A stretch of 64,000 bases of DNA from Candidatus Marinacidobacterium sp. GTDB lineage: Bacteria > Acidobacteriota > Vicinamibacteria > Marinacidobacterales > Marinacidobacteraceae. The translations under genes and the position numbers were made by a program. The notes below the pieces were generated by a model, which saw only the letters and a program-made list of their open reading frames with translations, was not told the DNA's origin and searched no databases. Position 1 is the first letter of the stretch, and every line of letters begins with the position of its first letter. Below, piece by piece: positions 1 to 64,000 of this stretch. The DNA lies in the NCBI GenBank assembly GCA_965204755.1, contig OZ242011.1:1248001-1312000 (forward strand), in the 5' to 3' direction.

Positions 1-550
1 TCCGGTCCGCGTGAGCGCGGGGCAAACCGCCGGCCCCGTCGCCTTCGCGATGCGCATCGGCCGCACCGGCCGGAGGCCGCCGGACCACGCTCGCGCGGCC
101 GCGAGTCCGGGTTCCTCCATCGCCGGCGGGGCCTCACCCTGCACCGGGGTTCGCGTGAGCGCCACCGCGCCCTACCCGGCCGACGGCCCGCACGCCGCCA
201 GCCAACCGGGCCAACTCCTCGGCGGCGACGCCTGGTTCACCAGCGAGTTGACGATGGAGTGGACGCCGGCGTCGGCCGGCGTCGCCGTCGACTGGACCGG
301 CCTCTATCGCAACTGGCAGTACGAGTTCTTCCTGCAGCGCATCGTGTACATCACGCCCCCCCGCTCGGGTTCGCCCTTCATGGATCTCTCCCTCCCCCGC
401 TGGGACGCGGAACGCGCGGGCGGCGGAGTGCGCCACACCGTGGAGGTCGTCTGGCCCGAGTCCGCGGAAGCCGGGCTCCGCTTCCGCGGCGGCAGTTGCC
501 GCGGCGAGCGCACCGTGGTCTGCACCCGGAACGGCTGCGGCCTCAGGTAG
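1..550 (+). CDS. 3' part of a secreted protein; Cys-rich C-terminal domain paralogous to the C-termini of 1798..2433 and 2430..4037 (5' end lies outside the window)
   Basis: Translation aligns with the C-terminus of 2430..4037: PCTGVRVSA/PCPGIRVRA, PYPADGPH, DWTGLYRNW/DWAGLYRDW, RHTVEVVWPESAEAGLRFR, VCxxxGCGLR-stop. Confidence 0.8.
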   Translation, partial: PVRVSAGQTAGPVAFAMRIGRTGRRPPDHARAAASPGSSIAGGASPCTGVRVSATAPYPADGPHAASQPGQLLGGDAWFTSELTMEWTPASAGVAVDWTGLYRNWQYEFFLQRIVYITPPRSGSPFMDLSLPRWDAERAGGGVRHTVEVVWPESAEAGLRFRGGSCRGERTVVCTRNGCGLR

Positions 551-665
551 CCGGAACCCCGGAGTTCGGTCGGCTTCATGGCGCGCCGACGGGTCGCCGA
601 CCACCATCGGTCGGACGCCGCCGCGCCGGCCGGGGTTCGCCTTGGCGTCGGTAGAGTCCCGCCCA

Positions 666-1801
666 TGCGAGCGGAGGCGTCATCGCCGGGCGGGCGGAGG
701 CGGATCCGCTTCCCCGGCTCGCTTTCATCCCCGCGCCCCGCCACGCGGGCGGCGGCCGCCCTGCTGGCGGCGGCGGTCGGCGCAGGCGCCTTCGGCCCCG
801 CCGAGGCCTACCGCCTCTACGACCATGGCGCGGCGGACTCGGTGGTGACTTCCGCCGAGGCGATCGCCTGGGCGCCGGAAGTCTGGGGCCCCGGCGCGGA
901 ACTCGAGTGGCGGAGGGAAGACCAGCCGGAGTGGGAAGCGGCGTTCGGCTCCGCCGACCGGGCCGGGGCGGTCATCGCAAGGGCCCTGGGCGCCTGGTCC
1001 GCCATTCCCGGCGCCGACATCCGGTGGTCGGAGGCGGCAACGGCGGCGCCGTTCATGGGGCGGTGGAACCGAGACGCCTCGAACCGGGTGTTCTTCTCCG
1101 CCGCCGGGTACGTAGGCGCCGGCGTCTGGTTCTCCCGCAGCCGGACCCGGCAGGTCTGGGAGATCAGCGAATGCGATGTGGCCCTGCCGTCGTCCTTGAC
1201 CCAGGACGGCCGGGATCCCGAGACTCTGGAGTCGCTCGCGATCGAAGCGCTCGCAGAGGCTTTCGGCGCTTGCCTGGGCCTCGGGTCTTCGGCCGAACCG
1301 CCGACCTCGGCGTCGGTCCGCGCGGCGGAACCGGAGACCGACGACCCGACCTCCCGCCTCACCGGTTTCCTGAGCGGCCCCCAAGTCGAGCGTCCGCTCT
1401 GGAGATCCCGATACGACCATGCCGTCGGCGCTTCGCTCCTGCGCCCCCGCGCCGGATGGCTGGAGACCGTCGGCAGCATCTCCGGCGCCCTGGAAGCCGA
1501 GGGGGCGCCGCTGGCCTACGCCCATGTCTGGGCCTTCCCGATCGGGGAAGGCGGTTTGACCGATCCGGTGGGCGCGTTCAGCAATCGCGCCGGCGAGTTC
1601 ATGATCGAGGGCCTGCGGCCCGGCCGCTACCTCCTCTGGGCTCATCCGATCAACGCGGACCTGCACCGGCTGCTCGGCGCCGGCGGCCGGACGGAGGTGA
1701 ACGACACTCTCCGGATGCTCCCGGTCCCGGTGGCTGCCGGGGAAGCGACCGGCGGCATCGTCCTCACGCTCGAACCGAACCGCGCGGCCCCATGGCGATG
1801 A
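666..1801 (+). CDS. Secreted matrixin-like (metzincin-fold) protein with degenerate zinc motif plus carboxypeptidase-regulatory-like domain
   Basis: Signal peptide ending AEA|YRLY. Paralog of the N-terminal two-thirds of 2430..4037 (WGPGA, ECD, AVGASLLRP, GSIxGxL, F.IEGL.PG.YLLWAHP). EAFGACLGLGS replaces HELGHCIGLAH. Start uncertain (578 or 666). Confidence 0.7.
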
Positions 1802-2433
1802 CTGTTCCGATGACCGCCCCGAAACCGCGCCGGGCTTGGCCCGGGCGCCCCGGCGAGGCCTGCTCCCGACGCGGAACCCCCGACGCCGCCGCGCTGCTCG
1901 CCGCGTTCACGATCGCCGCCGGCTCGGCGGGGGCCCTCTCCTGCGGCGGCGAGTCGGGAACCGCCCCGGTCCCGGCCGCCGCCGGCGTCGCCCCGACGAC
2001 CCCGGCGCCGCCGTCGCCGGAACCACCGGCGCCGGAACCCGAACCGCCGCCGCCCGAACCGCCGGCGCTCCTGGGGAGCCCCTGCTACGGCGTCTCGGCG
2101 AGCGCGAACGCGCCCCGGCAGGTGGACGACTGGAATCGCGTGACGGTGGTCCTCGACTGGGACGACGCCGCATTCGCCGAGGGCTTCGAATGGGTCTCTC
2201 CGTACTTCGACTTCTCCCCCGGCAACTACGACGCGCGCGCAGCGCCGCCGGCCCTGGAGATGAGCCTCATGGGATGGGAAACGGCGCCGGTCGCGCCGAC
2301 GGTGACCCGCCACACGCTCGATCTCCTGTGGCCGCCGTTCCGCGAAGTCGGCATGCGGCTTCGTTCCGCCCGGGACGCCTGTCCCCTCCCGCTCCTGGTC
2401 TGCAGCGCCGAGGGCTGCGAACTCCGACCATGA
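1798..2433 (+). CDS. Putative lipoprotein with Pro-rich linker and the Cys-rich C-terminal domain of this family
   Basis: ATGA overlaps at both ends. Hydrophobic stretch followed by ALSC lipobox-like motif, then a PEPP-rich linker. RHTLDLLWP...C...VCSAEGCELRP matches the paralogous C-termini. Confidence 0.7.
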   Translation: MTVPMTAPKPRRAWPGRPGEACSRRGTPDAAALLAAFTIAAGSAGALSCGGESGTAPVPAAAGVAPTTPAPPSPEPPAPEPEPPPPEPPALLGSPCYGVSASANAPRQVDDWNRVTVVLDWDDAAFAEGFEWVSPYFDFSPGNYDARAAPPALEMSLMGWETAPVAPTVTRHTLDLLWPPFREVGMRLRSARDACPLPLLVCSAEGCELRP

Positions 2434-7484: not shown

Positions 7485-8495
7485 TTGCGACCACGCGGTT
7501 GCTCTACTCCCGCGGCTCCGCATGCCGCGGCCCGCGTCGAGAGCGCGTCGGACGCACGGGAACCGGCGGACGACATCGGAAGCGCGCGGCCGCCGCATCC
7601 GTTTCCCTACCAAGGGAGCAAGCGCGCCATCGCCGACCACATCCTCCTCTACCTGCCTGCCGGCGCCGGGCGATTGGTCGAGCCCTTCGCCGGGTCTGCG
7701 GCCGTGTCGCTCGCGGCGGCTGTCCGCCGGCGCGCGGGGCGATTCTGGCTGAACGACAGCAACGGGCCGCTCATGGCGCTGTGGGCCGAGATTCTGGAGC
7801 GCCCCGAGGCGCTGGCCCTGAACTACGCCCGGTTGTGGCGGGAGCAAAGTGCGGACCGGAAGGCGTTCTTCTTTCGTACCCGGGGGCAGTTCAACCGCAC
7901 CCGCGAGCCCCACCTCCTTCTCTACCTGCTGGCAAGAATCGTCAAGGGCGCCGTGCGCTACAACGCGGAAGGTCGCCTCAACCAGAGTCCGGACAATCGG
8001 CGCTTCGGGATGCACCCGGACACCATGCGCCGACAGTTGCTGCGGGTCTCCGAACTGATGGCGAATCGCACCGAGATCACGGCGATCGACTTCCGAGAGG
8101 TCGTGACGGATGCAACCGACGACGATGTGCTCTACTTGGATCCTCCCTATCAGGGCACTTCGCTCACCCGCGACCACCGGTACTCGGGCGGGCTGTCCTG
8201 CGCCGATCTCGTGGAGGCGCTGGAACTGATGAACGACGCCGGGCAGTCCTACATCGTCAGTTATGACGGGCGCACCGGTACGAAGTCACATGGTCGGCCA
8301 CTGCCCGATCGGTTGCGCTTGCGGCGGCTGTTCCTCCATGCGGGCAGATCGAGCCAGGCCACGCTGCTCGGCAGAATTCGCGAGACCGTCGAGTCCCTGT
8401 ACCTGTCGGAGTCCTTGATCGAGCGTCTGCGCGACTCGAAGCCTGCCGCCGATGGCGCGAGCGCGAAACCGATGAAGTTGCCTTTCGCCGGATGA
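7485..8495 (+). CDS. DNA adenine methyltransferase (Dam/D12 class, alpha group)
   Basis: PFPYQGSKR, SAM-binding motif I VEPFAGSA, catalytic motif IV YLDPPY, VSYD. Start codon uncertain. Confidence 0.9.
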   Translation: MRPRGCSTPAAPHAAARVESASDAREPADDIGSARPPHPFPYQGSKRAIADHILLYLPAGAGRLVEPFAGSAAVSLAAAVRRRAGRFWLNDSNGPLMALWAEILERPEALALNYARLWREQSADRKAFFFRTRGQFNRTREPHLLLYLLARIVKGAVRYNAEGRLNQSPDNRRFGMHPDTMRRQLLRVSELMANRTEITAIDFREVVTDATDDDVLYLDPPYQGTSLTRDHRYSGGLSCADLVEALELMNDAGQSYIVSYDGRTGTKSHGRPLPDRLRLRRLFLHAGRSSQATLLGRIRETVESLYLSESLIERLRDSKPAADGASAKPMKLPFAG

Positions 8496-8535: not shown

Positions 8536-8961
8536 TCAGCGATCCGCCTCCCCCAAGAACGCCGCAACCCGGCGGGCCGTCCCCTCGGGATCGGCCAACT
8601 CACATTCCCACAGCGTGAGTACCCGCCACCCGTCCCCTCCGAGGCGCACGAGGTGCTCCCGGTCTCGCTCCCGAGTGCGGCGGAGTTTCGGGAGCCAGTA
8701 GGCCCGATTGGACTTCGGCAGTCCGGCGATCCGGCAGTTCGGGTCGGCGTGCCAGTGCCAGAAACACCCGTTCACGAAGATCACCGATCGAAGACGGGGG
8801 AGGACCAAATCCGGCTTCCCCGGAAGACTCTTCCGGTGAAGTCGAAAGCGGTACCCCATCCGGTGGACCAGCGACCGGACGACCATCTCCGGCGCCATCC
8901 CTTCCGACCGAATCCGCGACATGCACCGCGACCGATCCTCGCGGCTCAGGTTGTCGGTCAC
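8536..8961 (-). CDS. vsr: Very short patch repair endonuclease
   Basis: D...RSRCMSRIRS, PE..VRS, RFRLH...LPGKPDLVL, IFVNGCFWH.H, YW.PK, GWRVLTLWECE. Confidence 0.93.
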   Translation of the reverse strand: MTDNLSREDRSRCMSRIRSEGMAPEMVVRSLVHRMGYRFRLHRKSLPGKPDLVLPRLRSVIFVNGCFWHWHADPNCRIAGLPKSNRAYWLPKLRRTRERDREHLVRLGGDGWRVLTLWECELADPEGTARRVAAFLGEADR

Positions 8962-9071: not shown

Positions 9072-10983
9072 CTCGACTTCGACGGTTTAGCCCGGTCTGA
9101 GACCGGGAAGTCCTTGGTGCCCTTGGGGCGGCAGCTTGGATCCGGTTTGTAGTGTGCCGTGGTATTTGGTGATGAGTAACTTACTGCTATCATTCCCGCG
9201 TGTTCGTCCGCAAGTTCCGCCGGAAGAACCGGCCCGGCGTCGGCGTCCAGATCGTCCGGTCCTTCCGCGACGCCCGCGGCCGGCCCCGGCAGGAACTGAT
9301 GGTCTCCATCGGCTCCGCCCCGGAAGGCCCGGCCCTCGACGCCCTGGTCGAAGTGGCCGAGAGGAAGGTGGCCGAACTCCGGCTGGCCCGTCGGCCCACC
9401 CTGTTCCCCACCGACCTGCTGCTGCGCCAGGCGCTGGAGGCCCGCCAGGACCGGCGGACGCGCCGGGCGCGGTTGTCGGAGGTGAGCCAACTGCAGGAGG
9501 AGGCCCGCCTGACCCTGGGGGTGCACGAGGTGTTCGGCGCGCTCTGGAGCGAGGCCGGACTGGACGGGGTGTGGGGTGCGGGGCACCCGGTGTCCGGTCG
9601 GGTGTTCCGGCATGCGGTGATGCTGCGGCTGGCGGAGCCGGGCCGGAGCAAGCGGGGCCACGCGCAGGACCCGCAGCGGAACTACGGGCTGGAGATCCCG
9701 GTGGAGAAGTTCTACCGGATGATGGACCGGCTGGACGGGGAGCGGATCGCGCGGCTCACCGCCCGGGTGGGGACGCAGGTTCGGCGGCTGCTGGGGGGCG
9801 AGGTGGAGGTGGTGTTCATGGATGTGACCACCCTTTCGTTCGCCTCGGAGCAGGAGGACGGGTTGCGGGCGAAGGGGTACAGCAAGGACCAGAAGCCGCA
9901 CCGGGTGCAGGTGGTGCTGGCGCTGTTGCAGACGCGGGAGGGTTTGCCGCTGGGGTATCGGGTGTTCCCGGGGAACACGGCGGAGGTGAAGACGCTGCTT
10001 CCGTTGGTGGGGGAGTTGCGGGAGCGGTACCGGATCGGCCGGGTGGTGGTGGTGGCGGACGCGGCGATGCTGGGGACGAAGAACCTGGAGGCGTTGACGG
10101 CGGCCGGTTTCGAGTGGGTGGTGGCGGCGAAGCTCCGCCAGTTGCGGGGGAAGGACCTGGCGGCGCTGGCGGAGCCGGAGTCTTGGGCGGCTTCGGGGGA
10201 GGCGGGGCAGCGGCTGCGGGAGCACCGGGCGGAGGAGGGGGCGCTGCGGGGGCTTCGGCTGGTGGTGCGTTACTGCCCGAAGAAGGCGGAGCGGGACGCG
10301 GGGCTCCGGGCGAAGGCGGTGAAGCAGGCGAAGAAGCGGGAGGCGTCGGGGGTGAAGGGGAAGGGGCGGGCCGCGCGCTACCTGCGGGTGCGGCGGGACG
10401 CGGTGCGGTTCGACCCGGATCTGGTGGAACGGGACGCGCGGTTCGACGGGCTCCACGGGGTGTTCACCAGCCTGGCGGACCCGCCGGCGGAGATCCGGGC
10501 GCACTACGGGGGGTTGTGGCGGATCGAGCAGGGGTTCCGGGTGCTGAAGGGCACGCTGGAAGTGCGCCCGGTGTTCCACTGGACGGAGCGGCGGGTGCGG
10601 GCGCACCTGGCGATCTGCTACGCCGCCTTCGCGCTGCTCCGGTTGCTGCGCTGGCGTTACGCCCGGGCCTACCCGGAGGCGCCGCTGAGCGAGGAGCGGC
10701 TACTGCGGGAACTGCTCCGGGTGGAGGTCTCCCACGGCTGCGACCGGGGCACGAACGAGTGGTTCTTCCTGCCCTCGAAGGCCACCCCGGAGGCGGAGCG
10801 GATCTACCGGCTGGTGGGCCTGCGACTGCCCCGGCGGGCCACGCCGGTTCCACCCCCGAGGCGACTCCGCGAAGTCGCCTGACCTCCGACACCCCACCGC
10901 CGGACTCCCCCCGGTTGTAGTGTGCCTACGAAACCAAATCCCCAACTGTCAACCACTTACAAAGCCAAACCGTCGAAGTCAAG
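9072..10983 (+). mobile_element. IS1634-family insertion sequence (1912 bp)
   Basis: Terminal inverted repeats CTCGACTTCGACGGTTTAGC (9072-9091) and CTTGACTTCGACGGTTTGGC (reverse complement of 10964-10983), 18/20 identical. Single transposase. Flanked by a long direct repeat. Confidence 0.9.
9200..10882 (+). CDS. IS1634-family DDE transposase
   Basis: FMDVTT, GYSKDQKP..VQVVLALL...GLPL.Y.VFPGN..E, VADAAM, Y..LWRIEQGFRVLK..L.VRPVFHW...RVRAH..ICY. Confidence 0.93.
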   Translation: MFVRKFRRKNRPGVGVQIVRSFRDARGRPRQELMVSIGSAPEGPALDALVEVAERKVAELRLARRPTLFPTDLLLRQALEARQDRRTRRARLSEVSQLQEEARLTLGVHEVFGALWSEAGLDGVWGAGHPVSGRVFRHAVMLRLAEPGRSKRGHAQDPQRNYGLEIPVEKFYRMMDRLDGERIARLTARVGTQVRRLLGGEVEVVFMDVTTLSFASEQEDGLRAKGYSKDQKPHRVQVVLALLQTREGLPLGYRVFPGNTAEVKTLLPLVGELRERYRIGRVVVVADAAMLGTKNLEALTAAGFEWVVAAKLRQLRGKDLAALAEPESWAASGEAGQRLREHRAEEGALRGLRLVVRYCPKKAERDAGLRAKAVKQAKKREASGVKGKGRAARYLRVRRDAVRFDPDLVERDARFDGLHGVFTSLADPPAEIRAHYGGLWRIEQGFRVLKGTLEVRPVFHWTERRVRAHLAICYAAFALLRLLRWRYARAYPEAPLSEERLLRELLRVEVSHGCDRGTNEWFFLPSKATPEAERIYRLVGLRLPRRATPVPPPRRLREVA

Positions 10984-11158
10984 ATCGAAGACGGGGGAGG
11001 ACCAAATCCGGCTTCCCCGGAAGACTCTTCCGGTGAAGTCGAAAGCGGTACCCCATCCGGTGGACCAGCGACCGGACGACCATCTCCGGCGCCATCCCTT
11101 CCGACCGAATCCGCGACATGCACCGCGACCGATCCTCGCGGCTCAGGTTGTCGGTCAC
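10979..11158 (-). pseudogene. vsr: Truncated 5' copy of vsr created by the duplication
   Basis: Identical to the vsr N-terminus up to DLVLPRLRS, then stops at a TGA inside the IS end. Confidence 0.85.
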
Positions 11159-11268
11159 CTCCCCTTTCGCGCCACCCCTTCCAGCGCCGCCTCCGCTTCC
11201 TCCTCCAGCAGCCGGCGGAGGCGCGGTTCGGAGAGAGCATCGAGCAGGACGACGCCGCCCCGGCGATT
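10984..11268. repeat. 285-bp direct repeat, right copy
   Basis: Matches 8787..9071. Starts immediately after the right terminal inverted repeat. Confidence 0.92.
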
Positions 11269-11928
11269 GACGCCGCGCATCCACGCCCGGAACACCTCAC
11301 GGTCGAACAAGGCCCGGTCGCCCTCGTCCTTCCAGTGCTCCTTCATCACTGCATAGATCCTCCGCAGGACCTTCACATTACGGGACACGAAGGGGCGCTC
11401 CAACAGCGACGACCGCACATCCTGACGATAGAGCACGATCTCCAGAAACTCCTCCGGCCGCTCGGGATCCACCTCCCGCGCGATCTTCCCGAGCCACCAG
11501 AGGCGGGAGATCCCGTTGTCCCGAATCAGCGCCCGCGCGCCGCGGGCGAAGAAGTGGTTCCTTACCTCCCGGACCGCCGCCTCCTTCTTCTTCGGCCGGC
11601 GCAGAAGCCACCTCGCCCGAACATAGTCCGCGCACTCCACATGGCACAGGTACGCCCAGAGCCGCTCTTCGGACGCCTCATGACGGCTCAGTTCTCAAAG
11701 GTGGTCATGCACGCGCAGCGCGTTGACCGGATCGTCTTGTCCCGGCTTCTCGGTCGCCGTAAGCCGAAGATCTGCGGTACGTCTCTCGACTCTCGCTCGT
11801 CGCGACTCCGGCCATGACAGGCCGCGCTTTCTTCCGTGGGAACCCGAGTAGTACCAGTCCAGCCGGTCCGGCACGCTCTCCCGCAACTCTACGAGGGATG
11901 CCTCCGTGAAGTAGCGGATCTCGTCCAT
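11155..11928 (-). pseudogene. DUF6339-like protein interrupted by one in-frame TGA (11695-11697)
   Basis: TAATG overlap with the upstream gene. Reads ...VHDHL*ELSRHEASEERLWAYLCHVECADYVRARW...RDNGISRLWW... in a single frame. DUF6339 assignment is from remembered motifs only. Confidence 0.7.
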
Positions 11929-12821
11929 TACGCCGATCGTCCGTCCTTCAGGAGGGGCAGCCCTCTGAACGGACCTTCCAAGACACGCTGCGCATCCATC
12001 AGACGGTCCGCGTTCTCGCAACCGATGGGTCGGCACACCGGCGACCGGGATTCCCCCAGTGCCTCGCTCGTGGGCCGTACTTTCTCCAACCGCGTGTTCA
12101 GTACGGAATACCACCGACAGGACCTGTACTCGTCGGGAGCGCTGTCGGCGATCGTCAACAGATGCACGAGTGCCGGGAGATACACGCCGTTCATGAGGTA
12201 CGAAGCCTCGGCCTTCGTGCGAACCCGCTCCCGAGCCTGCCGAAAGTCCTTGTAGTCGACGGGGTGCATCTGCACTTCCACACGGTCCCCGGTCGGCGCG
12301 CAGGACCAAAGACCACGCGTTTGTTCGGGGTGCGGAATGAGAATAAAGATCGAACCCATATGACTCTCGTCTGCCGTGTCGATCCAGTAGGCCTCCGGCG
12401 TGTCCATCGCGAGAACGGCTCCTTCTTCGATGTCGAAAGTGCGGCCATCGAAGTCCGAGTGCCAACGCCTGGCGCGAAACGCCCGAAGGGGTCTTCCGGC
12501 CACACAGAACGCCGTAACTTCGAGATCGCGCGCGATCGTTCCGTCGGGGAACTCCTCGACGATTCTCGGCTCGAACGAATACGCCAAGGTGCGCAGACTG
12601 GTGAGCGGGCAGTGGATCAGGAGGGCGTAGCGCGCGCTCCGCTTCTCTACGAGCGCTACCAGGTCGGGGTCGCTCAACCGGTAGTCGGCGGTAACTCGGA
12701 GCGCCACCGTGCCCTCGATCCGCTCGACCTCGACATCCACCTCGAATTCGACTTTCTCGTAGTCCGAACTACGCGGACGGAGCACCGGATGCGGGAACGC
12801 CTTGGCTTCGTCGAACTTCAC
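11928..12821 (-). CDS. Uncharacterised protein (297 aa) in the methyltransferase operon
   Basis: Coupled to both neighbours (GTGA and TAATG overlaps). N-terminal FPHPVL motif. Protein-like composition. Confidence 0.8.
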   Translation of the reverse strand: MKFDEAKAFPHPVLRPRSSDYEKVEFEVDVEVERIEGTVALRVTADYRLSDPDLVALVEKRSARYALLIHCPLTSLRTLAYSFEPRIVEEFPDGTIARDLEVTAFCVAGRPLRAFRARRWHSDFDGRTFDIEEGAVLAMDTPEAYWIDTADESHMGSIFILIPHPEQTRGLWSCAPTGDRVEVQMHPVDYKDFRQARERVRTKAEASYLMNGVYLPALVHLLTIADSAPDEYRSCRWYSVLNTRLEKVRPTSEALGESRSPVCRPIGCENADRLMDAQRVLEGPFRGLPLLKDGRSA

Positions 12822-14791
12822 GACTTACTCCCGGAACTCGCAATCAGGCGAAGCGCGGCGCCGGTGAGAGCCTCCGGACTTCTCACATGCAAAGAGCGCC
12901 GGCGATTCTCCTTCAGTGACAAGCCCGTCGTGACCTCTCGCCCGTTGTCGGCGATGAACCGAACTCCGGGAATCGCCCGCGCCGCCGTGTCCCCGGCCTC
13001 TTCGAGTGCGAGGCGTGCGCGGCCGCTCGCTCCGGGCGTGAACCAGACCCGGAACTGCCGGCCGCTCGCGTCCTCGGCAAGGATCCGAACATCGTAGAGT
13101 CTGACGGCTGCGCCGCCGAGCGGGCCGTCCCTCGGCCCCGTGCCTCCGCGCCCCGGCCCGTCACCCGGCCCACCCCCGGGGCCCTGACCTCCTCCGCCCT
13201 CGCCGACGGGTGCGCCGCCACCGTGTCCGGCTTCGTCACCGTCGCCGGCCTCGTTGTCCTCGTCTGCGTCGCTTTCGAGCCCACTCGGCTGAACGCGGCG
13301 CTTCGGAGCCTTGCGCAGCACCACTCCCGTAACACCGAACTGTTTCTCGAGGTGTTCGCCTCCTTGTCCACCATCCAGCGGCCCAGGGCCGTCGAGCGGC
13401 AGGAACCGAGCCAGTTCGTCCAACTCCTCGGAAACACTCGACGGCGCCGGCGCGGCCACCTCGTCGAGCCGCTTCCGGATCCAGCCGGTCAGGCCACGGA
13501 GCGTGTCGCGGCCCTGTTTCCGGCGGTCCGGCGGGAGACGGTCCGGCTCGAATCGATCATGCGCCGGGTTCTCCATCTGCCGCAGGAGTTCGTTGGCTTC
13601 GGGAGTCTCGAAGACACAGACTGCAGCGAAATCGCGCAACGACGGAAAACGCATCAGGCCGGGCTGGTTGTCGGTCACCAGCATCCCCGTCCCTCGAATC
13701 AGGGCCACTTTGCCGGGTAGTTCTTCTCCGGGGCGCTCGTCCTCAGTCTCCACCCACAACTTCACCTTCCCCAGTCCCGGCAGGTCCTCTTCGAAGCGCG
13801 GCTTCGCGCCATCTCGAGTCATCCTCCAGTAGGTGTAAGCGTCCCGGGAGCCGTCCGCGGCGCCGTCGTCCTCTTCGAACAGACCGGCGAAGACCGTCTC
13901 CAGGGTCTCGTTACGGAGATCGGCATATTCGCCGCCCGCTTCACGGGACTCATCCGGCTCCAGCACGACATCCAGTCGGCGGCGCTCGATCGCGTAGAAG
14001 TAGTTCCGGAGGACACTTCGCGCGACTCCTCGCTGCCAAGCCTCCTCCGTCCTGAACCCGGCGATCCACACCGCTGTCCCGCCGATCGGCGTTCCCTCGT
14101 TCCCACGCATGCGGAACACTCGGGGAATCCTCCGGTTCCGCAACTCGCGGCAGCGGTCCGTGAGACCGAAGAAGCCCGAGCCGTGCGTCTCTTCAGCGCC
14201 TCCGTTCTCCTGCCAGTCGTGAGACATCAGGATCGCCTTCGCCTGGAACTTTTCGACGAGTTCACCGTCCTCGTCGAGACAGGTCCAGTAGCCGACGGTG
14301 CGAAGCGGCGACACCGCGAACGGCGCGTTCTTGCCGATTCCGTACGACCCGCCGGAAGTCGTGTCCTTCTTGGCGCTGTCCCCCTGCCTCTTCACGAGCG
14401 CCTTCCACTCCGCGTCCGGCAATCCCGTAGTGTTGCGATCCGAAATGCAGAGGAACGGAACGACTCGGCGCTCGAGCAACTTCGCAGCCTCCGCAAAGAA
14501 ATCGGCCGCCTTTGTCCGATCATCAGAGACACAGACGCGGTGACAGGCCTCGATGTGCCGGCGCAGTTGATCGCCGTCGAGATGTTTGCGGATGTCGATA
14601 TCGCGCAGTTCGAAGGTCATCTCCACGGTTTTTCCGTCGAGACCGGCGTCCAACGAATTCTGGATCACCTCCCGCGCCAGACTCCCGAGCAAATCGCCCT
14701 GGAAGTGGGCCATCCCGGCGTGTTCGAACCCCTGCCCCTCGCCTCCATCGAGAAGCGGGAACTTCCAGCCGATGCCGCCTCCGAGATTCAT
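12818..14791 (-). CDS. GHKL (HATPase_c/MORC-like) ATPase-domain protein, 657 aa
   Basis: ATGA overlap with the C5-MTase. N-box LAREVIQNSLDA, G1-like ISDRNTTGL, G2 GGSYGIGK, GGTAVWI. Acidic/Gly-rich linker before a small C-terminal beta domain. Confidence 0.78.
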   Translation of the reverse strand: MNLGGGIGWKFPLLDGGEGQGFEHAGMAHFQGDLLGSLAREVIQNSLDAGLDGKTVEMTFELRDIDIRKHLDGDQLRRHIEACHRVCVSDDRTKAADFFAEAAKLLERRVVPFLCISDRNTTGLPDAEWKALVKRQGDSAKKDTTSGGSYGIGKNAPFAVSPLRTVGYWTCLDEDGELVEKFQAKAILMSHDWQENGGAEETHGSGFFGLTDRCRELRNRRIPRVFRMRGNEGTPIGGTAVWIAGFRTEEAWQRGVARSVLRNYFYAIERRRLDVVLEPDESREAGGEYADLRNETLETVFAGLFEEDDGAADGSRDAYTYWRMTRDGAKPRFEEDLPGLGKVKLWVETEDERPGEELPGKVALIRGTGMLVTDNQPGLMRFPSLRDFAAVCVFETPEANELLRQMENPAHDRFEPDRLPPDRRKQGRDTLRGLTGWIRKRLDEVAAPAPSSVSEELDELARFLPLDGPGPLDGGQGGEHLEKQFGVTGVVLRKAPKRRVQPSGLESDADEDNEAGDGDEAGHGGGAPVGEGGGGQGPGGGPGDGPGRGGTGPRDGPLGGAAVRLYDVRILAEDASGRQFRVWFTPGASGRARLALEEAGDTAARAIPGVRFIADNGREVTTGLSLKENRRRSLHVRSPEALTGAALRLIASSGSKS

Positions 14792-15804
14792 GCGGCGGCT
14801 CTCAACTCTTCGCGCAGGATGCGAGCGCACTCGACGCCGATCAAGCGGGACAGGTGAACGCAGACCGCGTTGCCGAGCAGACGGTAGCGCTCGGCAGTCG
14901 GGACGGACTCCGGAAAAACCGAGGAATCCACGCCGAAGCCCTGGAGTCGGGCTACCTCTTGGACGCTCAACTTGCGAATCCCCCACCGGTCGCGGAGGAA
15001 GGGAACATTGTGGCCGCCGATACCCATGTTCGCCGTCAGCGTCGGGCACTGGCCGTTCGGCTTCTCGCGGACATAGGAACGCCGAAGTTGATACAGGTTG
15101 CGGTCGGATTTCCCCTTCTCCATGGCCGCGCTGATCATTCGGTAGTACTGGTTCTCCGGAGCGAGGTAGAGATCGTCGGGAGCCTTTCGCCTGCGGTCGA
15201 TCAAGGCGCCGATCTCCGATTTGACTCCGCTGGCGATGGCCGGCGCGGAGAACGGGTTGTAGGGGAAGTGGGCGCGTGAAGCGGCCACCAGGAAGAGCCG
15301 CTCCCGATCCTGCGGCGACTCGCTGACTTCCCGGACATTCACTTTCCAGCAGGTCTCTTCACGAAACCAGTATCCGACCTGGCGCAGTTCTCGGCGCACG
15401 CGATCGAACCAGGCGCCTCGGGCGCCGTACAGCAGGTGAGGAACATTCTCGAGAACGACGAGCGCCGGGCGCTCCTCCTCCGCGTACTCACGCAGAAGTC
15501 TCGGGATCTCGAAGAACAGGCGCCCTCTCGGATCGTCGAACCCGCGGCGGTCGCCGGCCTGGGAAAAACTCTGGCACGGGAACCCGGCCGCCAGCACCTC
15601 GACCGGGCTCAGCTGAGCGGCGGCTACGAACAATTCGCAGACATCCTTTTCCACGACCGGAGCGCCGGGGAACCGGTGGCGGAAGGTCTCGCAGGCGGAG
15701 CGGTCGCAGTCCGACGCCCAAGCGATCTCGAAGCCGGCCTCGGCCAGACCGGAGGCGAACCCGCCCATTCCGGAGAACAGGCAGCCTGCTCGAAGGCGGC
15801 GCAT
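14788..15804 (-). CDS. dcm: DNA (cytosine-5)-methyltransferase
   Basis: Motif I LFSGMGG, catalytic GFPCQSFS, ENV, QDRERLFLVA, RKLSVQEVARLQGF, motif X LLGNAV. Confidence 0.95.
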   Translation of the reverse strand: MRRLRAGCLFSGMGGFASGLAEAGFEIAWASDCDRSACETFRHRFPGAPVVEKDVCELFVAAAQLSPVEVLAAGFPCQSFSQAGDRRGFDDPRGRLFFEIPRLLREYAEEERPALVVLENVPHLLYGARGAWFDRVRRELRQVGYWFREETCWKVNVREVSESPQDRERLFLVAASRAHFPYNPFSAPAIASGVKSEIGALIDRRRKAPDDLYLAPENQYYRMISAAMEKGKSDRNLYQLRRSYVREKPNGQCPTLTANMGIGGHNVPFLRDRWGIRKLSVQEVARLQGFGVDSSVFPESVPTAERYRLLGNAVCVHLSRLIGVECARILREELRAAA

Positions 15805-15901
15805 ACGCTGCTCAGTGCTCGGCCGCACCGTAGCGGCGACGCCGGGCGAAGACCCCCGGCCGCGCCTGCGACCGGGCGGCTGCTATCCGCCGACTGCGCT
15901 C

Positions 15902-19607: not shown

Positions 19608-20138
19608 ATGCCTTGGTGGAAGCGCCACAGTCTCGAGGGACTCGTCGCCCACTCCCCCATCGCCGTCGGCCGTTACATCCTCACGAAGGCCGGCGAGCAG
19701 GGGTTCACGGTCACGCCCATGAAGTTGCTCAAGATCGTGTACCTGGCCCACGGTTGGATGCTCGGCATCCACGGCCTCCCGTTGGTGCGCGGCCGGGTGG
19801 AGGCGTGGCAATACGGCCCGGTGTTCCCGGAGTTGTACCACGCGATCAAACACCGCGGCGCGGAGCCGGTGACGGCGGCCGACCTCCCGGACAAACCGCA
19901 TGAAGTCTTCGAACCGGAAGCGAAACGAGTGATGTCGGACGCCGTCGAACAGTACGGCCCGCTCACGGCCGCCGCGCTCTCGTCGCTGACTCATGCGCCG
20001 AACACTCCGTGGGAATTGACTTACCGGAAAGGAGTTCGCGGCCGAGCCATACCGAACGAACTGATCGAGTTCTACTATCGGGAGATGTTGCGGCTGTACC
20101 ACGAGGGTCACGGACAAGAGGAAGAGAGTCCGTCGTGA
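19608..20138 (+). CDS. Panacea-domain (DUF4065/SocA-like) antitoxin
   Basis: TPMKLLKIVYLAHG, VEAWQYGPV.PELY, YG...A..LSSLTH...PW, IPNELI..YY. Confidence 0.9.
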   Translation: MPWWKRHSLEGLVAHSPIAVGRYILTKAGEQGFTVTPMKLLKIVYLAHGWMLGIHGLPLVRGRVEAWQYGPVFPELYHAIKHRGAEPVTAADLPDKPHEVFEPEAKRVMSDAVEQYGPLTAAALSSLTHAPNTPWELTYRKGVRGRAIPNELIEFYYREMLRLYHEGHGQEEESPS

Positions 20139-20536
20139 ACGCCGAATATCCCTATTCCGACTGGTTGGGCCTCGGTTCCAAAGGACAACCGGCGGCTCCG
20201 GCGCAACAGTCGTTGAAGGGTGCCCGAACACTGCAGAGGCGTGTCGCCGAGAAGGACTACGAACTCAGCGAGAAGAAGCACAAGAATCGATTCCGCGTGG
20301 TCATGCTGTTCGGTCTTCCGATACTCACCGCGGCCTGGCTGTTTCTGATCGCGTGGGCAATCGTGACCGACCGAATCGAAGGCATCCAAGTAGGAATCGC
20401 CTTGGGTGCGACCGGAGCGGGTTTGCTGACAGTGCTCGGACTGCAGATCTCGTGGGCATACTCCCAGAAGACGAGTACGGATACGGATCCTTCCGGCCGC
20501 GTGCTCAAGTCCGTTACCAAGAAGTACGTCCGATGA
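20135..20536 (+). CDS. Two-TM membrane protein, putative toxin partner of the Panacea protein
   Basis: GTGA overlap with the Panacea gene. Two hydrophobic helices. Lower GC than the flanks. Confidence 0.6.
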   Translation: MNAEYPYSDWLGLGSKGQPAAPAQQSLKGARTLQRRVAEKDYELSEKKHKNRFRVVMLFGLPILTAAWLFLIAWAIVTDRIEGIQVGIALGATGAGLLTVLGLQISWAYSQKTSTDTDPSGRVLKSVTKKYVR

Positions 20537-20788
20537 TTTGGCAACTGCCAAAGAGCGCTGCGATGATCAAGTCCTTGACGCCGCGGCCGCGCATTCCGCC
20601 GGCAGGTCTCCGTCCTGCCGAAGAGGAGGGCGGAACCTCGCGGCGGTCCGCTGTGGTGCGAGTGCGCTCGTTTCAGTCGTCTGACGAGTGCGACGCCGGC
20701 CGGTCTTCGAGGCCGCTCGCGAACGGACGGGGACGGCGGGCACCGGAGGGCGAAGGCCGCGGCGACAACCCGCCCTTCTGACCGAGTC

Positions 20789-24446: not shown

Positions 24447-24531
24447 CGGTCGAGTCAGGTCCCGCGCGCCCGCGCCTCGGCGGACGGCCCGCCCCGGGCC
24501 CTTCTCCTCACGGAGTCTTCGATTGCGCCGG

Positions 24532-26622: not shown

Positions 26623-26626
26623 CGCG

Positions 26627-28246: not shown

Positions 28247-28653
28247 GGCGGGATGTTAGTAGTTGCCCGGGGCGGGGAGCGGCGACTCGGCGGGGGCGCG
28301 CCGCCGACCGGAAACCGGCGTCCGGCGGGCGCGCGATCACCGGGTTTCGGGGGGGAGAGAGGCGGTGGAGCGGGGCCCGCGCGGCGCCGACGCGGCCTCC
28401 GGTCGCGCTGCCGCTCCACGGCTTCCCCGGGCCGACCGGGCGGCGCTCCGCGGCCTCCCGCCCGGCCGTCGGCGGCGCCGAACCCGGTCCCGGGAGCCGT
28501 TCCGAAGCGGTCCGACCCCGCCGCCTCGTGATAGATTCGCGGGCCGCCCGGCGGAGCGAACGCCCTCGGCCGACGCTCCGGGACACCCCGGCGCGGAGGC
28601 CGGCGGCAGCTGCTCCGCGCCGGGAGGAGTCGACGAGAAGGAGTCATCACCAC

Positions 28654-31626: not shown

Positions 31627-31630
31627 TCCC

Positions 31631-40199: not shown

Positions 40200-40298
40200 A
40201 CCGTCCGCCGGCCCCGAGGAAAACGCCGGCGACGCCGTGGAGGGCGCCGGGCCGCGGGAAGCCGGTACCCCGGAACCGAAGGTCCTGAAACGAACGCC

Positions 40299-41945
40299 AT
40301 GAACCGGACGACCGCAGCCGCCCTGCTCGCGGCGCTGTTGCTCGGCGGCTGGTTGTTCCTGTTCGAGCGCGGCGAACCCGGGGCCGGCGCGGACGGCGAG
40401 CCGGTTTTCGGAGTGTCGGCCGAGCAGGTCGCTTCGGTGTCCCTCCTTCGGCCGGAGACTCCCGCGGTCCATCTCGAACGCCGCCGCGGCGCGGCCGGCG
40501 GCGACGAGGAAGGAGGAACCTCCGCGGCATTCGCGATCCGCGAAGGCGGGGGCGCGCCGGAAGACGCGGACCCCACCGAAGTGGACCTCCTGCTGCAGAA
40601 CATCGAGTCGCTCCGGTTCGAGCGGCGGCTGTCCGGGGCCGCCGCCCTCGACCTCGACGCCTTCGGGCTCGCGGAACCGGATCTCACGGTGCGCGTGGAG
40701 CGGCGAAACGCCCGCGGCCCGAACGCGAACGCCGTCGAGGCGGGTTTCGGCGCCGAGACGCCGGCCCCCGGAAACCGCTACCTCAGGCTGGGCGACGGGG
40801 TGGTCATCGTCTCCGACTGGTCGAAGGAGAACTTCGACAAGAGCGCCTGGGACCTCACCGACAAACGGGTCTTCCGCTTCGACACCGCGGGAGTCCGGGC
40901 GGTTCGGATCAGCGCCGGCGGCCGCGAGGCCGCCATCGAGCGGAGGAACGGCGACTGGTGGATCGTCCGCCCCTACCGGTTCGCCGCCGACCCCTACGAC
41001 GCCTCCCAACTCGCGTCGAAGGTGCGCGAGGCGCGCATGATCGGGCGCGCGCGCCGGGACCGGGCCGCCGCCGAACCCGGCGCCGACGCCCCCGATCCCT
41101 TCGGTTTGGCGGCGCCGCGGCTGACCGCCCGTTTCGAGATCGCTCCGGACGAGGACGCCGGGGGCGAGGAACCGGCGGCGGCAGCCGAATCCGCGCGCGG
41201 GGAAACCGGCGGGATGCCGACGCCCCGAACCGGCGTTCTCCACTTCGGGAATCCGAGCGACGACCCCTCGGGAGTGTTCGCCCGCATCGAGACCGACGAC
41301 GGGCGATCCTCCGGGGAGGAGGACGCCGCGGTCTTCGTCGTCGCCGAATCCCTGTTCGACGAGTTGGCGGAGAGCGTGGGCGACGGGCTGACCGGAGTGC
41401 GCTCGGTGCAGCTGTTCCGCTTCTCCGCCTGGAAGGTCGTCGAACTGCGCCTCGCCGGCCCGGAGGGCGAGAGCGTCTTCCGGCGGGAAGAAGGCGAAGA
41501 CGGGGGACGGACCTGGACGCGCGAGCCGATCGGGCGCCGGACCGGCGGCGCGGAGACGACCCGCGCCGCATCCGACACCATGGACGACCTGCTCTACCGG
41601 CTGAACTCCACGAACGCCGCCGCGGTCACCGACTCCGAAGCGCTGCCGGCCGGGACGCCGGCCGGGACGCCGGCCTGGACGATCACGGTCCGGGAGGAAG
41701 AGACCCCGCTGCCCGGCCCGGAGACTCCGCCTCCGGCCCGCACGGAGACCGTCCGCATCGCCGGCGGCGGCGAGGAGGGGCCGCAGGCCCTCCGCGCCGG
41801 CGACGAACGGACCCTCCGGCTCCGCGAGGCGGATTGGGAGGAGATCACCGCGCTCCTCCGCTCACTCGATTCGCCGCTCGAAACGGAAGGCGCCCCGGAG
41901 GGGGAATCGGACCGCGATCCGGAACCCGGCGCTCCCGGGCCGTGA
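40299..41945 (+). CDS. DUF4340 domain-containing protein
   Basis: Follows GldG. Repeated FGL..P motifs, W....P....AD. Confidence 0.78.
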   Translation: MNRTTAAALLAALLLGGWLFLFERGEPGAGADGEPVFGVSAEQVASVSLLRPETPAVHLERRRGAAGGDEEGGTSAAFAIREGGGAPEDADPTEVDLLLQNIESLRFERRLSGAAALDLDAFGLAEPDLTVRVERRNARGPNANAVEAGFGAETPAPGNRYLRLGDGVVIVSDWSKENFDKSAWDLTDKRVFRFDTAGVRAVRISAGGREAAIERRNGDWWIVRPYRFAADPYDASQLASKVREARMIGRARRDRAAAEPGADAPDPFGLAAPRLTARFEIAPDEDAGGEEPAAAAESARGETGGMPTPRTGVLHFGNPSDDPSGVFARIETDDGRSSGEEDAAVFVVAESLFDELAESVGDGLTGVRSVQLFRFSAWKVVELRLAGPEGESVFRREEGEDGGRTWTREPIGRRTGGAETTRAASDTMDDLLYRLNSTNAAAVTDSEALPAGTPAGTPAWTITVREEETPLPGPETPPPARTETVRIAGGGEEGPQALRAGDERTLRLREADWEEITALLRSLDSPLETEGAPEGESDRDPEPGAPGP

Positions 41946-41955
41946 GACCCCTCGC

Positions 41956-55501: not shown

Positions 55502-56749
55502 GTGAGCGAGTCGGGGCGGCCCTACCGCCAGTCCCATCCATGGCTGACTTTCCGCATGGACCTCTCTCGCGCCCCGCCTTCGCTGTGGGCGCTGCTGGGA
55601 CAGGCGCTGGCGATGTGCCGGCAAGTCGCCACCGCGATCCTCCCGGCGCCGGCGCGGGCGCAACTTCGGCATCTCTACCTGACCAAGGGCGCGCAGGCCA
55701 CGACGGCCATCGAGGGCAACACGCTCTCCGACGAGGAGGTCGAGGCCGTGATCGAGGGGACGGCGAACATTCCTCCCTCGCGGGCCTACCAAGAGACGGA
55801 ACTCCGGAATGTGGTGCAGGCCTTCGACGAAACCCTGCAGGCGCTCGACCGGGACCCCGATACGCGGTTGACGCCCGATCGGATCACCGCCTACAACCGC
55901 GGAGTTCTCAACGGCCTCGAGGAGCGCCTCGAAGAGGGAGTGGTCCCGGGAGAGATCCCCGAACACTCGGTCGGCGTCCGGGGAGCCGGGTACCGAGGCG
56001 CTCCGCGAAGCGACTGCGACTACCTGCTCGCGGAGTTGTGCCGGATGGTGGAACCTTCGGCGCAACTCGCGGCCGCCTTCCCGCCGGACGCCGAAAATCG
56101 GATGGCGACCGCCCTCGCGCACGCGATCCAGGCGCACCTCTATATCGCCTGGATTCATCCCTACGGCGACGGGAACGGGCGCACGGCCCGCCTCGTCGAG
56201 TTCTTCCTGCTGGTCCGCGCCGGCGTCGCGCCCGAGTGCGCCCACCTGCTGAGCAACCACTACAACCGAACGCGCCCCTCCTACTACTACGAACTCCAGA
56301 GGGCGAGCGCGGCGAATCGAGGAGCCGGCGACCCGCTGGGGTTCGTCGTCTACGCCCTGCGAGGGTTCGTGGATGGCCTGAGGGAACAGATCCGGGATGT
56401 GGAGCGCTTCCAGGAACGAATCGCCTGGGACAGTTTCGTCCAGGAGGTCGCGCGAGCCGAAGGGGGTTCGGCCGCGATGGCGGAGCGCCGCCACCGGGTC
56501 GCCGTCGCCCTGGCGGACACCGGCCCCACTCGAATGCGGGCCATTCCCGGCCTGACACCCGACTTGGCGCGACGCTACGCCGGCAAGGCGCTCAGGACGC
56601 TGAGCCGCGACCTGCGCTGGCTCGTAGAGCATGGTCTTCTCAAGGAGACAGACGGCGCGTTCGCCGCGCGCACCGACCTCCTAAGAGCCATCGGACTCTC
56701 CACGCGGCGGGCCGCTCGCGACGACGCCGCCGGGCGCGGTCAGAATTAG
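55502..56749 (+). CDS. Fic family protein with C-terminal winged-helix domain
   Basis: Inhibitory-motif-like TTAIEGN, Fic motif HPYGDGNGRTAR, C-terminal RTLSRDLRWLVEHGLL. Confidence 0.92.
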   Translation: MSESGRPYRQSHPWLTFRMDLSRAPPSLWALLGQALAMCRQVATAILPAPARAQLRHLYLTKGAQATTAIEGNTLSDEEVEAVIEGTANIPPSRAYQETELRNVVQAFDETLQALDRDPDTRLTPDRITAYNRGVLNGLEERLEEGVVPGEIPEHSVGVRGAGYRGAPRSDCDYLLAELCRMVEPSAQLAAAFPPDAENRMATALAHAIQAHLYIAWIHPYGDGNGRTARLVEFFLLVRAGVAPECAHLLSNHYNRTRPSYYYELQRASAANRGAGDPLGFVVYALRGFVDGLREQIRDVERFQERIAWDSFVQEVARAEGGSAAMAERRHRVAVALADTGPTRMRAIPGLTPDLARRYAGKALRTLSRDLRWLVEHGLLKETDGAFAARTDLLRAIGLSTRRAARDDAAGRGQN

Positions 56750-63450: not shown

Positions 63451-63510
63451 TCGTCGAAGCGGAAGTCGTCCGGGAAGGTCGGCGAGAGAGGGGGAGGGGG
63501 TCGCCCGCCC

Positions 63511-63555
63511 GCGTCCGGGAGGCGTCCGGAAGGCGTCCGGAAGGCGTCCGGGAAG
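63511..63555. repeat. Tandem repeat, four copies of 11-12 bp GCGTCCGG(G)A(A)G
   Basis: gcgtccgggag gcgtccggaag gcgtccggaag gcgtccgggaag. Related copies near 63468 and 63600. Confidence 0.8.
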
Positions 63556-63693
63556 GCCACTACGCCGCCCGCGCGCCGAGGTTCCCGACCGGAGGGCCGG
63601 TCCGGGAAGCCGTCCGCCCGCCGTTTCGCCGGTTGGCTCCGCCGGAAGTCTCGGGCGTCCCCGCCCCCGTCCTACTCCCCGGCGGGAGGAACC

Positions 63694-64000
63694 TTACGCG
63701 CCCGCGTCGGCGGCGGGCGCCGACTCCCCGTCGGAGCCGGGCGGGGGACGGCGGGCGACCGGGACTTCCGCCGGAAGAAGCAGGAAGACGCCGTAGCCGC
63801 GGCAGACCGGATCGGAGACATAGTCGGCGAGCAGCGCCCGCGCCCGGAAACCGAGACGGAGTTGGACGCTGACCGTGGGGTCGAAAGTCTCCCCGGCGAC
63901 CACTCGCCGGTAGTACTCCTCGGCCGGGAGGCGGTCGGCCACCGCGCCGTAACCGCTCAGCAGCCCCACGGTGACTTGACCGGAGAGCCCGCGCCGCTGC
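63694..64000 (-). CDS. 3' part of a GNAT-like acetyltransferase
   Basis: L.GY......AEEY...V..GE..DPTVS.QL..GF....L..Y..DP...YG pattern. Runs off the window edge. Confidence 0.6.
   Translation of the reverse strand, partial: QRRGLSGQVTVGLLSGYGAVADRLPAEEYYRRVVAGETFDPTVSVQLRLGFRARALLADYVSDPVCRGYGVFLLLPAEVPVARRPPPGSDGESAPAADAGA

Follow-up and report, generated by a model that had tools for sequence, protein, structure and literature searches.

The avoidance of restriction sites in prokaryotes is reportedly documented in earlier work by Gelfand and Koonin in 1997 and by Rocha et al. in 2001. In the available part of a survey which sets the cut-off for under-representation at 0.78, such avoidance is described as following orthodox type II systems, growing with the residence time of a system and being able to outlast it (Rusinov et al. 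2015, PMC4687349). The word AGCT is totally or nearly absent from A-clade pandoraviruses, a deficit which is left unexplained in the accessible portion of the report (Poirot et al. 2019, bioRxiv 10.1101/712018), and it is strongly avoided or absent in Haloquadratum walsbyi (PMC3119063) and in the halovirus HRTV-7 (PMC7230728), where the authors, in the passages available, blame restriction-modification. The stretch of DNA considered here, referred to as the window, comprises 64,000 nt with a G+C content of 70.7% and spans positions 1,248,001-1,312,000 of the single-contig, 3,975,858 bp genome of Candidatus Marinacidobacterium sp. (contig OZ242011.1), hereafter G000. Both AGCT and a second palindrome, ACGT, are nearly absent from the window and from the genome as a whole. 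The finding is probably an extreme case of known restriction-site avoidance and lies at the far end of the described range.

AGCT corresponds to an AluI-like and ACGT to a MaeII/HpyCH4IV-like specificity. As in type II site avoidance, the two palindromes are under-represented beyond what composition and codons account for, the trait is lineage-specific and more sites are found in foreign-looking DNA, and the ordinary form of the phenomenon is represented in the same genome by its own HgiDII/BbrUII-like system, with GTCGAC at 0.20 of expectation. Unlike the cases of the type II survey with its cut-off of 0.78, G000 shows ratios of 0.03-0.045 (Markov) and about 0.015 (codon-aware) for two four-letter words at once, and in a further departure from ordinary avoidance no cognate orthodox system is recognised and, within one family, ACGT has been lost in as many as three genera. 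The pandoraviruses share with G000 the same word, GC-rich megabase DNA, depletion in genes and intergenic DNA alike, varied and non-directed replacements and, in the accessible text, the lack of a named system. They are, however, eukaryotic viruses in which, according to that text, one word has gone to zero, whereas G000 is a bacterium with two depleted words and several hundred survivors that cluster in stable RNA genes and in DNA that looks foreign; its genome is full of restriction-modification genes. The haloarchaeal case belongs to another domain of life, and the available parts of the two papers report no co-depletion of ACGT.

CpG depletion in vertebrates arises through the deamination of 5-methylcytosine, and in Escherichia coli very-short-patch repair shifts word frequencies. 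As in the CpG case, the depleted words hold a cytosine that is open to C5 methylases, and genes for C5 methylases and for the very-short-patch mismatch endonuclease Vsr are present in G000; unlike the CpG case, there is no excess of T-containing products where the genetic code leaves a choice, and Vsr would raise rather than lower the frequency of a methylated word. A literature search, which was not exhaustive and excluded survey supplementary tables, found no bacterial chromosome with two tetranucleotides each at about 3%, and no paper on Marinacidobacterium.

Extent of the depletion in the window, the genome and its relatives

An earlier note, made on the window by eye, had claimed a near-absence of AGCT and ACGT and had listed eight survivors. 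Direct counting bears this out, with five AGCT (9133, 10131, 15611, 28608 and 41410) and three ACGT (1110, 11779 and 20526) at exactly the positions given in the note. Base composition predicts 171 copies of each word, a first-order Markov model 144 AGCT and 179 ACGT, and a maximal-order Markov model 115 AGCT and 103 ACGT; the note had put the base-composition figure on the order of a hundred of each. The codon-aware null, in which synonymous codons are shuffled inside each open reading frame (ORF; 200 shuffles for the window, 20 for the genome), gives 107.6 ± 6.8 AGCT (minimum 90) and 90.8 ± 5.5 ACGT (minimum 77) for the 43 crude ORFs of the window (47,847 nt), as against four and one observed. 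These ORFs come from a crude caller that retains long ORFs with a high third-position G+C content, of which the genome contains 2,258, covering 2.89 Mb or 73% of its length.

In the whole genome there are 332 AGCT and 265 ACGT, where composition predicts 10,247 of each and the Markov model 7,446 and 7,147 respectively. The synonymous shuffle of all 2,258 ORFs predicts 6,556 ± 46 AGCT and 5,180 ± 46 ACGT as compared with 79 and 84 observed, which rules out the possibility raised in the note that single-codon usage might explain the deficit in full, and the depletion is independent of codon usage. In the genome-wide observed/expected ranking of the 256 tetranucleotides the two words occupy the bottom two places, followed by CTAG in third, and the one-letter neighbours AGCC, GGCT, ACGC and GCGT occur at normal frequency. 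With ratios of about 0.02-0.045 under the composition and Markov nulls and about 0.01-0.04 under the codon-aware one (0.012-0.045 across all three), AGCT and ACGT fall short of expectation by a factor of some 30 to 80, and 97-99% of both words are gone.

The best control is provided by kin that match G000 in G+C content and codon usage. In 24 of the 27 other genomes of the family, sampled at no less than 20 kb each and of the same composition, both words are depleted only in the same-genus genome G001, which contains 119 AGCT and 98 ACGT where 1,224 of each are expected (479 kb). Two further genera of the family, represented by G005 and G007, are poor in ACGT (26 vs 407 in G005; 52 vs 385, or 0.14, in G007) and normal in AGCT (403 vs 407 and 440 vs 385 respectively). 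The remaining 21 sampled genomes are normal, so that one of 24 is AGCT-poor and three of 24 are ACGT-poor, and depletion is found in none of 15 genomes of the same order, none of 22 further genomes of the phylum and none of 53 metagenome contigs of at least 4 kb, from which 27 shorter loci had been dropped. Among the four ACGT-poor genomes the depletion is strongest in G000. It is a lineage trait and not a composition shared with relatives.

Over aligned stretches the nucleotide identity between G000 and G001 is about 76%. At 654 conserved Glu/Gln/Lys-Leu positions the two genomes use the same escape from AGCT in 441 cases and a different escape in 134; AGCT is kept in G001 and lost in G000 at 19 of these positions, and the reverse applies to one. 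Where G001 has kept a site, its counterpart in G000 is most often AACT/AGTT or ATGT/ACAT. Site loss has thus continued after the split of the two genomes, and about half of the losses look independent, with some switching through AATT as a possible contribution. A RecA tree of the family is not resolved, and a quick tree of six proteins (the careful search being unfinished) places G005 with G007 and G001 with the non-depleted G004, with supports of 86-93. One origin of the ACGT loss and two origins are both compatible with these trees.

CTAG is strongly depleted in all 24 sampled genomes of the family, with a pooled observed/expected ratio of about 0.02-0.08; single 20-kb family loci mostly lie at or below 0.15, with one at 0.20, and same-order genomes of about 60% G+C at roughly 0.15-0.4. 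TTAA is nearly absent across G000 and the 24 sampled genomes. A contig from an unrelated Armatimonadaceae metagenome-assembled genome (MAG; L091, 20.9 kb) contains 10 AGCT and two CTAG where 76 of each are expected.

The single-contig state of G000, G001 and G005 suggests long reads, and base-calling errors at methylated motifs could in principle have converted the two palindromes to different words, since miscalled 5-methylcytosine could mimic C-to-T changes. This is almost certainly not the case. Contigs from four other public runs, which are sponge and marine metagenomes, reproduce positions 24001-44000 of the window, one of them (independent or source) with 0 differences and the other three with 107-181 differences each; in one of these three an Illumina adapter is present at a loose end. 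T-to-C plus A-to-G differences in the three amount to just 20-40 each per 20 kb, as against the 150 or so required for normal site numbers, and no site-creating change occurs among the 40 variants listed (of 275). The changes moreover respect synonymy, the sites in tRNA and rRNA genes are intact, and the fragmented assembly G007 (410 contigs) displays the same loss of ACGT.

Rewritten codon pairs and the sites that survive

The rewriting of codon pairs that the note had seen by eye is confirmed across the ORFs of the genome. Glu before CTN is encoded by GAA in 3,239 of 3,250 cases (99.7%) as compared with 31.7% in other contexts, Asp before GTN by GAT in 1,710 of 1,729 (98.9%) as compared with 10.5%, and Leu after NAG by TTG in 1,964 of 2,010 (97.7%) as compared with 4.8%. 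For Gln, Lys, Asp, Asn, His and Tyr the rare codon accounts for 98.4-99.0% in the critical context and for 6-15% elsewhere. The share of GAA among Glu codons outside the AGCT context, next to about 10% for the A-ending codons of Gln and Lys, is in itself unusual at 72% G+C.

All reading frames are depleted, with observed and expected counts of 28/1780, 34/4506 and 17/270 for AGCT and of 22/1818, 45/3109 and 17/253 for ACGT. After a codon ending in A, GCT makes up 0.3% as compared with 3-11% otherwise, and CGT 0.3% as compared with 3-9%. The deficit extends to 1,074 short inter-ORF gaps (159 kb), which contain 16 AGCT and eight ACGT where 351 of each are expected, and likewise to the gaps between divergent genes, with five and two as against 100.6 expected of each. 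Depletion in every frame and in the gaps implies that the target is a DNA word which is removed by whichever change is allowed.

The note had seen in the replacements a signature reminiscent of 5-methylcytosine deamination, which would imply that AGCT and ACGT are C5-methylated, that the inner cytosine deaminates to thymine and that the sites erode in the manner of CpG. The genome does encode six C5 methylases, the commonest replacements in coding DNA are formally C-to-T or G-to-A (AGTT/AACT at 1.7-2.0 times and ATGT at 2.25 times the synonymous-shuffle expectation), and the G000 counterparts of the sites kept by G001 mostly fall into the same classes. However, the sole synonymous escapes from xAG|CTx are NAG to NAA and CTR to TTR, the sole one from xAC|GTx is NAC to NAT, and the sole single-step one from AGC|T is AGC to AGT, so that the C-to-T pattern in frame 1 and in AGC|T arises because the genetic code permits only those changes. 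Where the code leaves a choice the excess vanishes. Thr codons before T (n=5,022) are ACC in 70.3%, ACT in 23.0%, ACA in 6.3% and ACG in 0.4% of cases, which makes the predicted deamination product ACA the rarest replacement in ACG|T; frame-2 sites (xxA|GCT and xxA|CGT), in which C-to-T alters Ala or Arg, are nonetheless 15-fold depleted (17 vs 270 and 17 vs 253); and in the inter-ORF gaps AGTT (230) and AACT (244) do not exceed the controls AAGT (244) and ACTT (233), while ATGT (126) and ACAT (136) are lower. The "deamination signature" is therefore a product of the genetic code and not of mutation. In addition, a gene for Vsr, whose repair counteracts exactly C-to-T changes at such sites, is found close to five of the six C5 methylases. 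G007 is ACGT-poor and yields no match to a C5 methylase (PF00145) in an assembly of 410 contigs that is 86% complete, whereas G012 has about seven C5 methylases and is not depleted. Finally, to hold a 30-80-fold deficit at equilibrium against strong GC pressure would demand an implausibly high rate, and mutational decay is very unlikely to account for the loss.

The survivors show where the words are tolerated. AGCT is found in tRNA and rRNA genes in 49 of 332 cases, which at 4.9 per kb is a normal density; the 23S gene of G000 contains 16 copies as compared with 15-17 in four relatives, and the 67 tRNAs contain 27, chiefly within the canonical TAGCTCA of the D arm. Such a distribution is also what would be seen if an endoribonuclease, for example the toxin of a toxin-antitoxin pair, cut AGCU and ACGU in messengers and spared tRNA and rRNA on account of their structure, modification or protein cover. 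Many toxin-antitoxin genes are present in the genome and, as both words are palindromes, strand asymmetry cannot separate selection on DNA from selection on RNA. The inter-ORF gaps are, however, as depleted as the genes, including the divergent gaps that should hold untranscribed DNA, which argues for a target at the DNA rather than the RNA level; a pair of palindromes is a hallmark of dimeric DNA enzymes, and functional constraint alone accounts for the retention of sites in stable RNAs. Cleavage of messengers is accordingly a highly improbable cause. The words are tolerated where function requires them, and the toleration of sites in stable RNA genes means that an active nuclease would require a protecting methylase.

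Across the genome the survivors are clustered (variance 17.2 and mean 3.0 in 20-kb bins) and their counts are negatively correlated with G+C content. The tenth of the genome with the lowest G+C contains 119 of the AGCT and 155 of the 265 ACGT survivors, a further 11 of the latter being counted in tRNA and rRNA genes, and the other 90% of the genome carries 0.046 AGCT and 0.028 ACGT per kb. Even so, the lowest-GC tenth is still about 8-10-fold depleted. Within the window, as the note had stated, five of the eight survivors lie in DNA that looks acquired, namely an insertion sequence (IS) element, a defence island or the neighbourhood of a toxin-antitoxin gene: AGCT at 9133..9136 is located just upstream of an IS transposase ORF (9200-10879) which belongs to an IS that is absent from the syntenic G001 locus, AGCT at 10131..10134 lies within the transposase gene, ACGT at 11779..11782 between the DUF6339 (M33C) and M33B genes of a defence module, AGCT at 15611..15614 within the C5 methylase gene of that module, and ACGT at 20526..20529 in an unknown ORF that adjoins a SocA/Panacea antitoxin gene. 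The other three are AGCT at 28608..28611, at the start of an aminotransferase class-V ORF, and AGCT at 41410..41413, in a DUF4340 ORF, both of which are core-looking genes, and ACGT at 1110..1113, in an ORF without a family match.

Probable selection against restriction sites and its candidate agents

The best explanation, to which we assign somewhat better than an even chance, is that AGCT and ACGT have been removed by long and still-acting selection on DNA words through restriction-type cleavage. The lineage would have lived for a long time with restriction-type endonucleases that cut AGCT and ACGT, so that each unmethylated site would pose a small risk of self-cleavage, incoming site-rich DNA would be filtered out and mutations that destroy a site would be favoured. 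In coding DNA only synonymous escapes would survive, which would give rise to GAA-CTG, GAG-TTG, GAT-GTC and AGT-T, while sites in tRNA and rRNA genes would stay where function outweighs the small cost, the survivors presumably being protected by methylation. We infer nucleases as the selective agent; the specificity for two words, the control provided by kin, the depletion in all frames and gaps, the use of the permitted escapes, the locations of the survivors, the continued loss and the many restriction-modification genes all fit this account, and the 8-10-fold depletion of the low-GC tenth is what a filter on incoming DNA should produce. The note had proposed that the lineage has long carried C5 methylation or restriction at the two palindromes, and it is the second half of that proposal, not methylation-driven mutation, that survives.

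Two gene modules come into consideration as agents. The first lies in the window, on the minus strand, and starts with a C5 cytosine DNA methylase ("dcm", 14791..15828; PF00145 E 1.2e-51, TIGR00675 dcm) as the first of five genes. It is followed by a PDC-M33A-like protein (12821..14791; PADLOC PDLC04582 E 8.2e-93, no Pfam match, start set at an internal Met), a PDC-M33B-like protein (11931..12821; PADLOC PDLC04583 E 2.5e-40) and a PDC-M33C/DUF6339 protein (11158..11640; PF19866 E 2.1e-27, PADLOC PDLC04586 E 9.9e-23). M33A/B/C figures in PADLOC as a candidate defence system, and all three profiles are matched by adjacent genes of the window; a literature search found no paper on PDC-M33. The M33A-like protein has an N-terminal motif that resembles a GHKL ATPase by eye only, the motif alignment not being significant, and its BLASTP matches to an HgiDII-family nuclease (E 1.1) and to the A protein of the second module (E 0.049) are likewise not significant. 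The intact Vsr gene of the module (8539..8961, minus strand; PF03852 E 2.3e-26) is separated from it by the IS transposase (DDE_Tnp_1, 9200..10879, plus strand). A duplicated Vsr fragment (10979..11155, minus strand; PF03852 positions 1-59, with an internal TGA), which shares its G001 Vsr match with the intact copy, was probably left by the IS insertion.

The second module (G000:1516107-1521778) is divergent but of the same build and consists of proteins of 627, 345 and 260 amino acids followed by a DNMT1-like C5 methylase and Vsr. Its first protein is a weak match to M33A and its third a weak match to DUF6339, and the module would seem to represent a relative of PDC-M33 that has no name as yet. 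The whole 5.4-kb cassette is also found in G005, whose methylase (79% identity) is the only close homolog in the family, and at the syntenic site G001 carries a 44% methylase homolog with Vsr and a divergent recognition block. The second module is widespread in metagenomes, its partner genes being present in 25-28 of 31 loci of at least 8 kb. Structure searches with both C5 methylases returned general C5-methylase folds (HhaI, HaeIII, DNMT1) and no specificity, a search for homologs of the second methylase and of the G005 nuclease described below returned generic names only (DNA cytosine methyltransferase, HNH endonuclease, hypothetical protein), and a very-short-patch-repair footprint in word frequencies, sought as a way to infer the targets of the methylases, gave no clear signal.

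As a special case of selection by restriction, the window module might be responsible for the loss of AGCT and its paralogue at 1.516-1.522 Mb for that of ACGT. The modules, like the purged words, number two; among the 27 other genomes of the family the window methylase has an ortholog only in G001 (72% identity, module syntenic), which is also the one further genome poor in AGCT; the close homolog of the second methylase is that of the ACGT-poor G005; and where a module is seen without avoidance it may be a recent arrival, as is argued in the available text of the survey (Rusinov et al. 2015, PMC4687349). On the other hand G000 and G001 are sister genomes, which means that genes shared by them are not independent evidence, the G001 copy of the second methylase differs most in its recognition region (a block of 13% identity), and multi-part interacting systems are, according to the same part of the survey, usually without avoidance. 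This assignment of one module to each word is unlikely, and the same holds when it is joined with the alternative that the agent is a nuclease which reads the density of sites rather than their methylation, in which case the chromosome would be protected mainly by its near-lack of sites. As regards the window dcm, which the note had singled out as a possible source of either specificity, the words are normal around homologous modules, and this evidence speaks against a simple link with AGCT or ACGT.

Complete homologous modules of the window type with the same gene order are present in G001 and in five MAGs of other phyla (Entotheonella, Binatia, Dehalococcoidia). Outside the family the methylases are 62-67% identical with a recognition-region core that is about 80% conserved, and when MAGs from no fewer than four phyla are compared the identities are 62-72% for the methylase and 66-78% for Vsr, which suggests that the five-gene module has spread horizontally among co-resident symbionts.

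The wider repertoire of G000 comprises the six C5 methylases, six Vsr matches (five without stops and the fragment with the TGA), about 13 full-length N4/N6 methylases, EcoRII-, SmaI- and HgiDII/BbrUII-like nucleases, a type III system and GmrSD. A C5 methylase next to a 653-aa protein that matches the BbrUII/HgiDII restriction-enzyme family (E 1.1e-104, below the curated cut-off) is encoded at G000:2393071-2396048. GTCGAC, which we take to be the HgiDII site, occurs 416 times in the genome where 2,076 are expected, a five-fold depletion; resident systems do leave footprints here, though these are an order of magnitude weaker than those at AGCT and ACGT.

Next to the window module lies a D12-class (Dam-like) N6-adenine DNA methylase (7485..8492, plus strand; PF02086 E 1.4e-29, PADLOC MTase_II PDLC03341 E 1.9e-74). 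Among the 27 other genomes of the family it has homologs at 58-65% identity only in G001, G005 and G007, and one at 44% in the non-depleted G009. In G005 (L275 9340-10991) and G007 (L276 8993-10873) it is paired, at the syntenic site, with a nuclease of 242 amino acids which matches the PADLOC REase_II profile (E 9.7e-52), has an N-terminal winged helix and has a homolog that one source calls an 'HNH endonuclease'; the G007 nuclease is matched in two pieces and may be broken. The nuclease family is conserved and very large, with 6,425 proteins at E <= 1e-10, the top matches being 62-73% identical. Two further candidates were set aside. An orphan N4/N6 methylase at 1.034 Mb has homologs only in G001 (80%), G007 (59%) and, as a 107-residue fragment, G005, and has no nuclease neighbour, a pattern that may reflect the mere kinship of these three genomes. 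A system with a 995-aa methylase at 2.90 Mb is common to G000, G001 and G005, and also occurs at 65-69% in the non-depleted G011, G014, G018 and G023. In general, the phyletic matches of candidate methylases may reflect kinship only.

The state of this island also bears on the possibility that the cutting systems have been lost and that the depletion is a slowly decaying trace, with no enzyme acting today. No orthodox pair is recognisable for either word, the D12 methylase stands alone in G000 and G001 and has its nuclease neighbour in G005 and G007, the IS element and the duplicated Vsr fragment betray a rearranged island, and the survey, in its available part, reads avoidance without a system as the mark of one since lost (Rusinov et al. 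2015, PMC4687349). Against this, G000 is the most depleted of the four genomes, it and G001 independently lost sites after their split, and the persisting depletion of the lowest-GC tenth, presumably the youngest DNA, fits a barrier that is active now or was so recently. A purely fossil footprint is unlikely.

Several observations weigh against selection by restriction-type nucleases itself. The observed/expected ratio of 0.03 is far below the 0.78 at which the survey places its cut-off. The inter-ORF gaps are unusually GC-rich (74.6%) and the gene calls crude, so that some of the gaps may be coding. In the 23S gene AGCT has not been lost even at variable columns, where G000 holds three of eight and relatives two to four of eight, and at column 1222 (gene G000:2268575-2271581) AGCT is present in G000 alone and GGCT in the four relatives, which represents a gain. 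No AGCT or ACGT nuclease-methylase pair was recognised in about 14 methylase neighbourhoods of G000 examined with Pfam, NCBIfam and PADLOC, and no model named after AluI or MaeII/HpyCH4IV is among the matches to these three collections, which assign no specificity to the candidates. A search for the REase_II nuclease in G000 and G001 found none, though both have kept the D12 methylase, and the D12 pair is only a weak candidate for an ACGT system, as seven other genomes that carry the nuclease have ACGT ratios of 0.62-0.96. Points which also count against the two modules as agents are that the DNA flanking the five complete window-type modules of other phyla and a sixth, partial locus is normal for both words (AGCT 0.51-1.38, ACGT 0.83-1.19), that homologs of the second methylase (50-64% identity) in 53 contigs and three genomes of the phylum are in no case accompanied by ACGT depletion, and that the second module tracks the loss of ACGT in part only, with a methylase of 79% identity in G005, of 44% in G001 and none in the ACGT-poor G007.

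The window contains further genes of a conflict type, namely a SocA/Panacea antitoxin with its unknown neighbour (19608-20880), an AbiEii toxin domain (23751-24446), an AAA_14-DUF4143 ATPase (44109-45278) and a Fic protein (55502-56749).

Significance of a graded series in one family

The rewriting of thousands of codon pairs against the codon preference of the genome itself shows the reach of weak selection per site. It also holds a warning for readings made from sequence alone, as an apparent C-to-T signature can stem from the genetic code. In practical terms, AluI- and MaeII-type enzymes would cut the DNA of G000 only every 12-15 kb or so. Within one sponge-associated family of Acidobacteriota the genomes form a graded series, with neither word depleted, ACGT only, or both, which offers a practical route to the enzymes responsible and could serve to test whether methylase modules of the PDC-M33 type are four-base restriction systems. 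If PDC-M33 cassettes or a density-sensing nuclease should indeed be at work, this natural series of genomes would allow the agent of an extreme four-letter taboo to be found.

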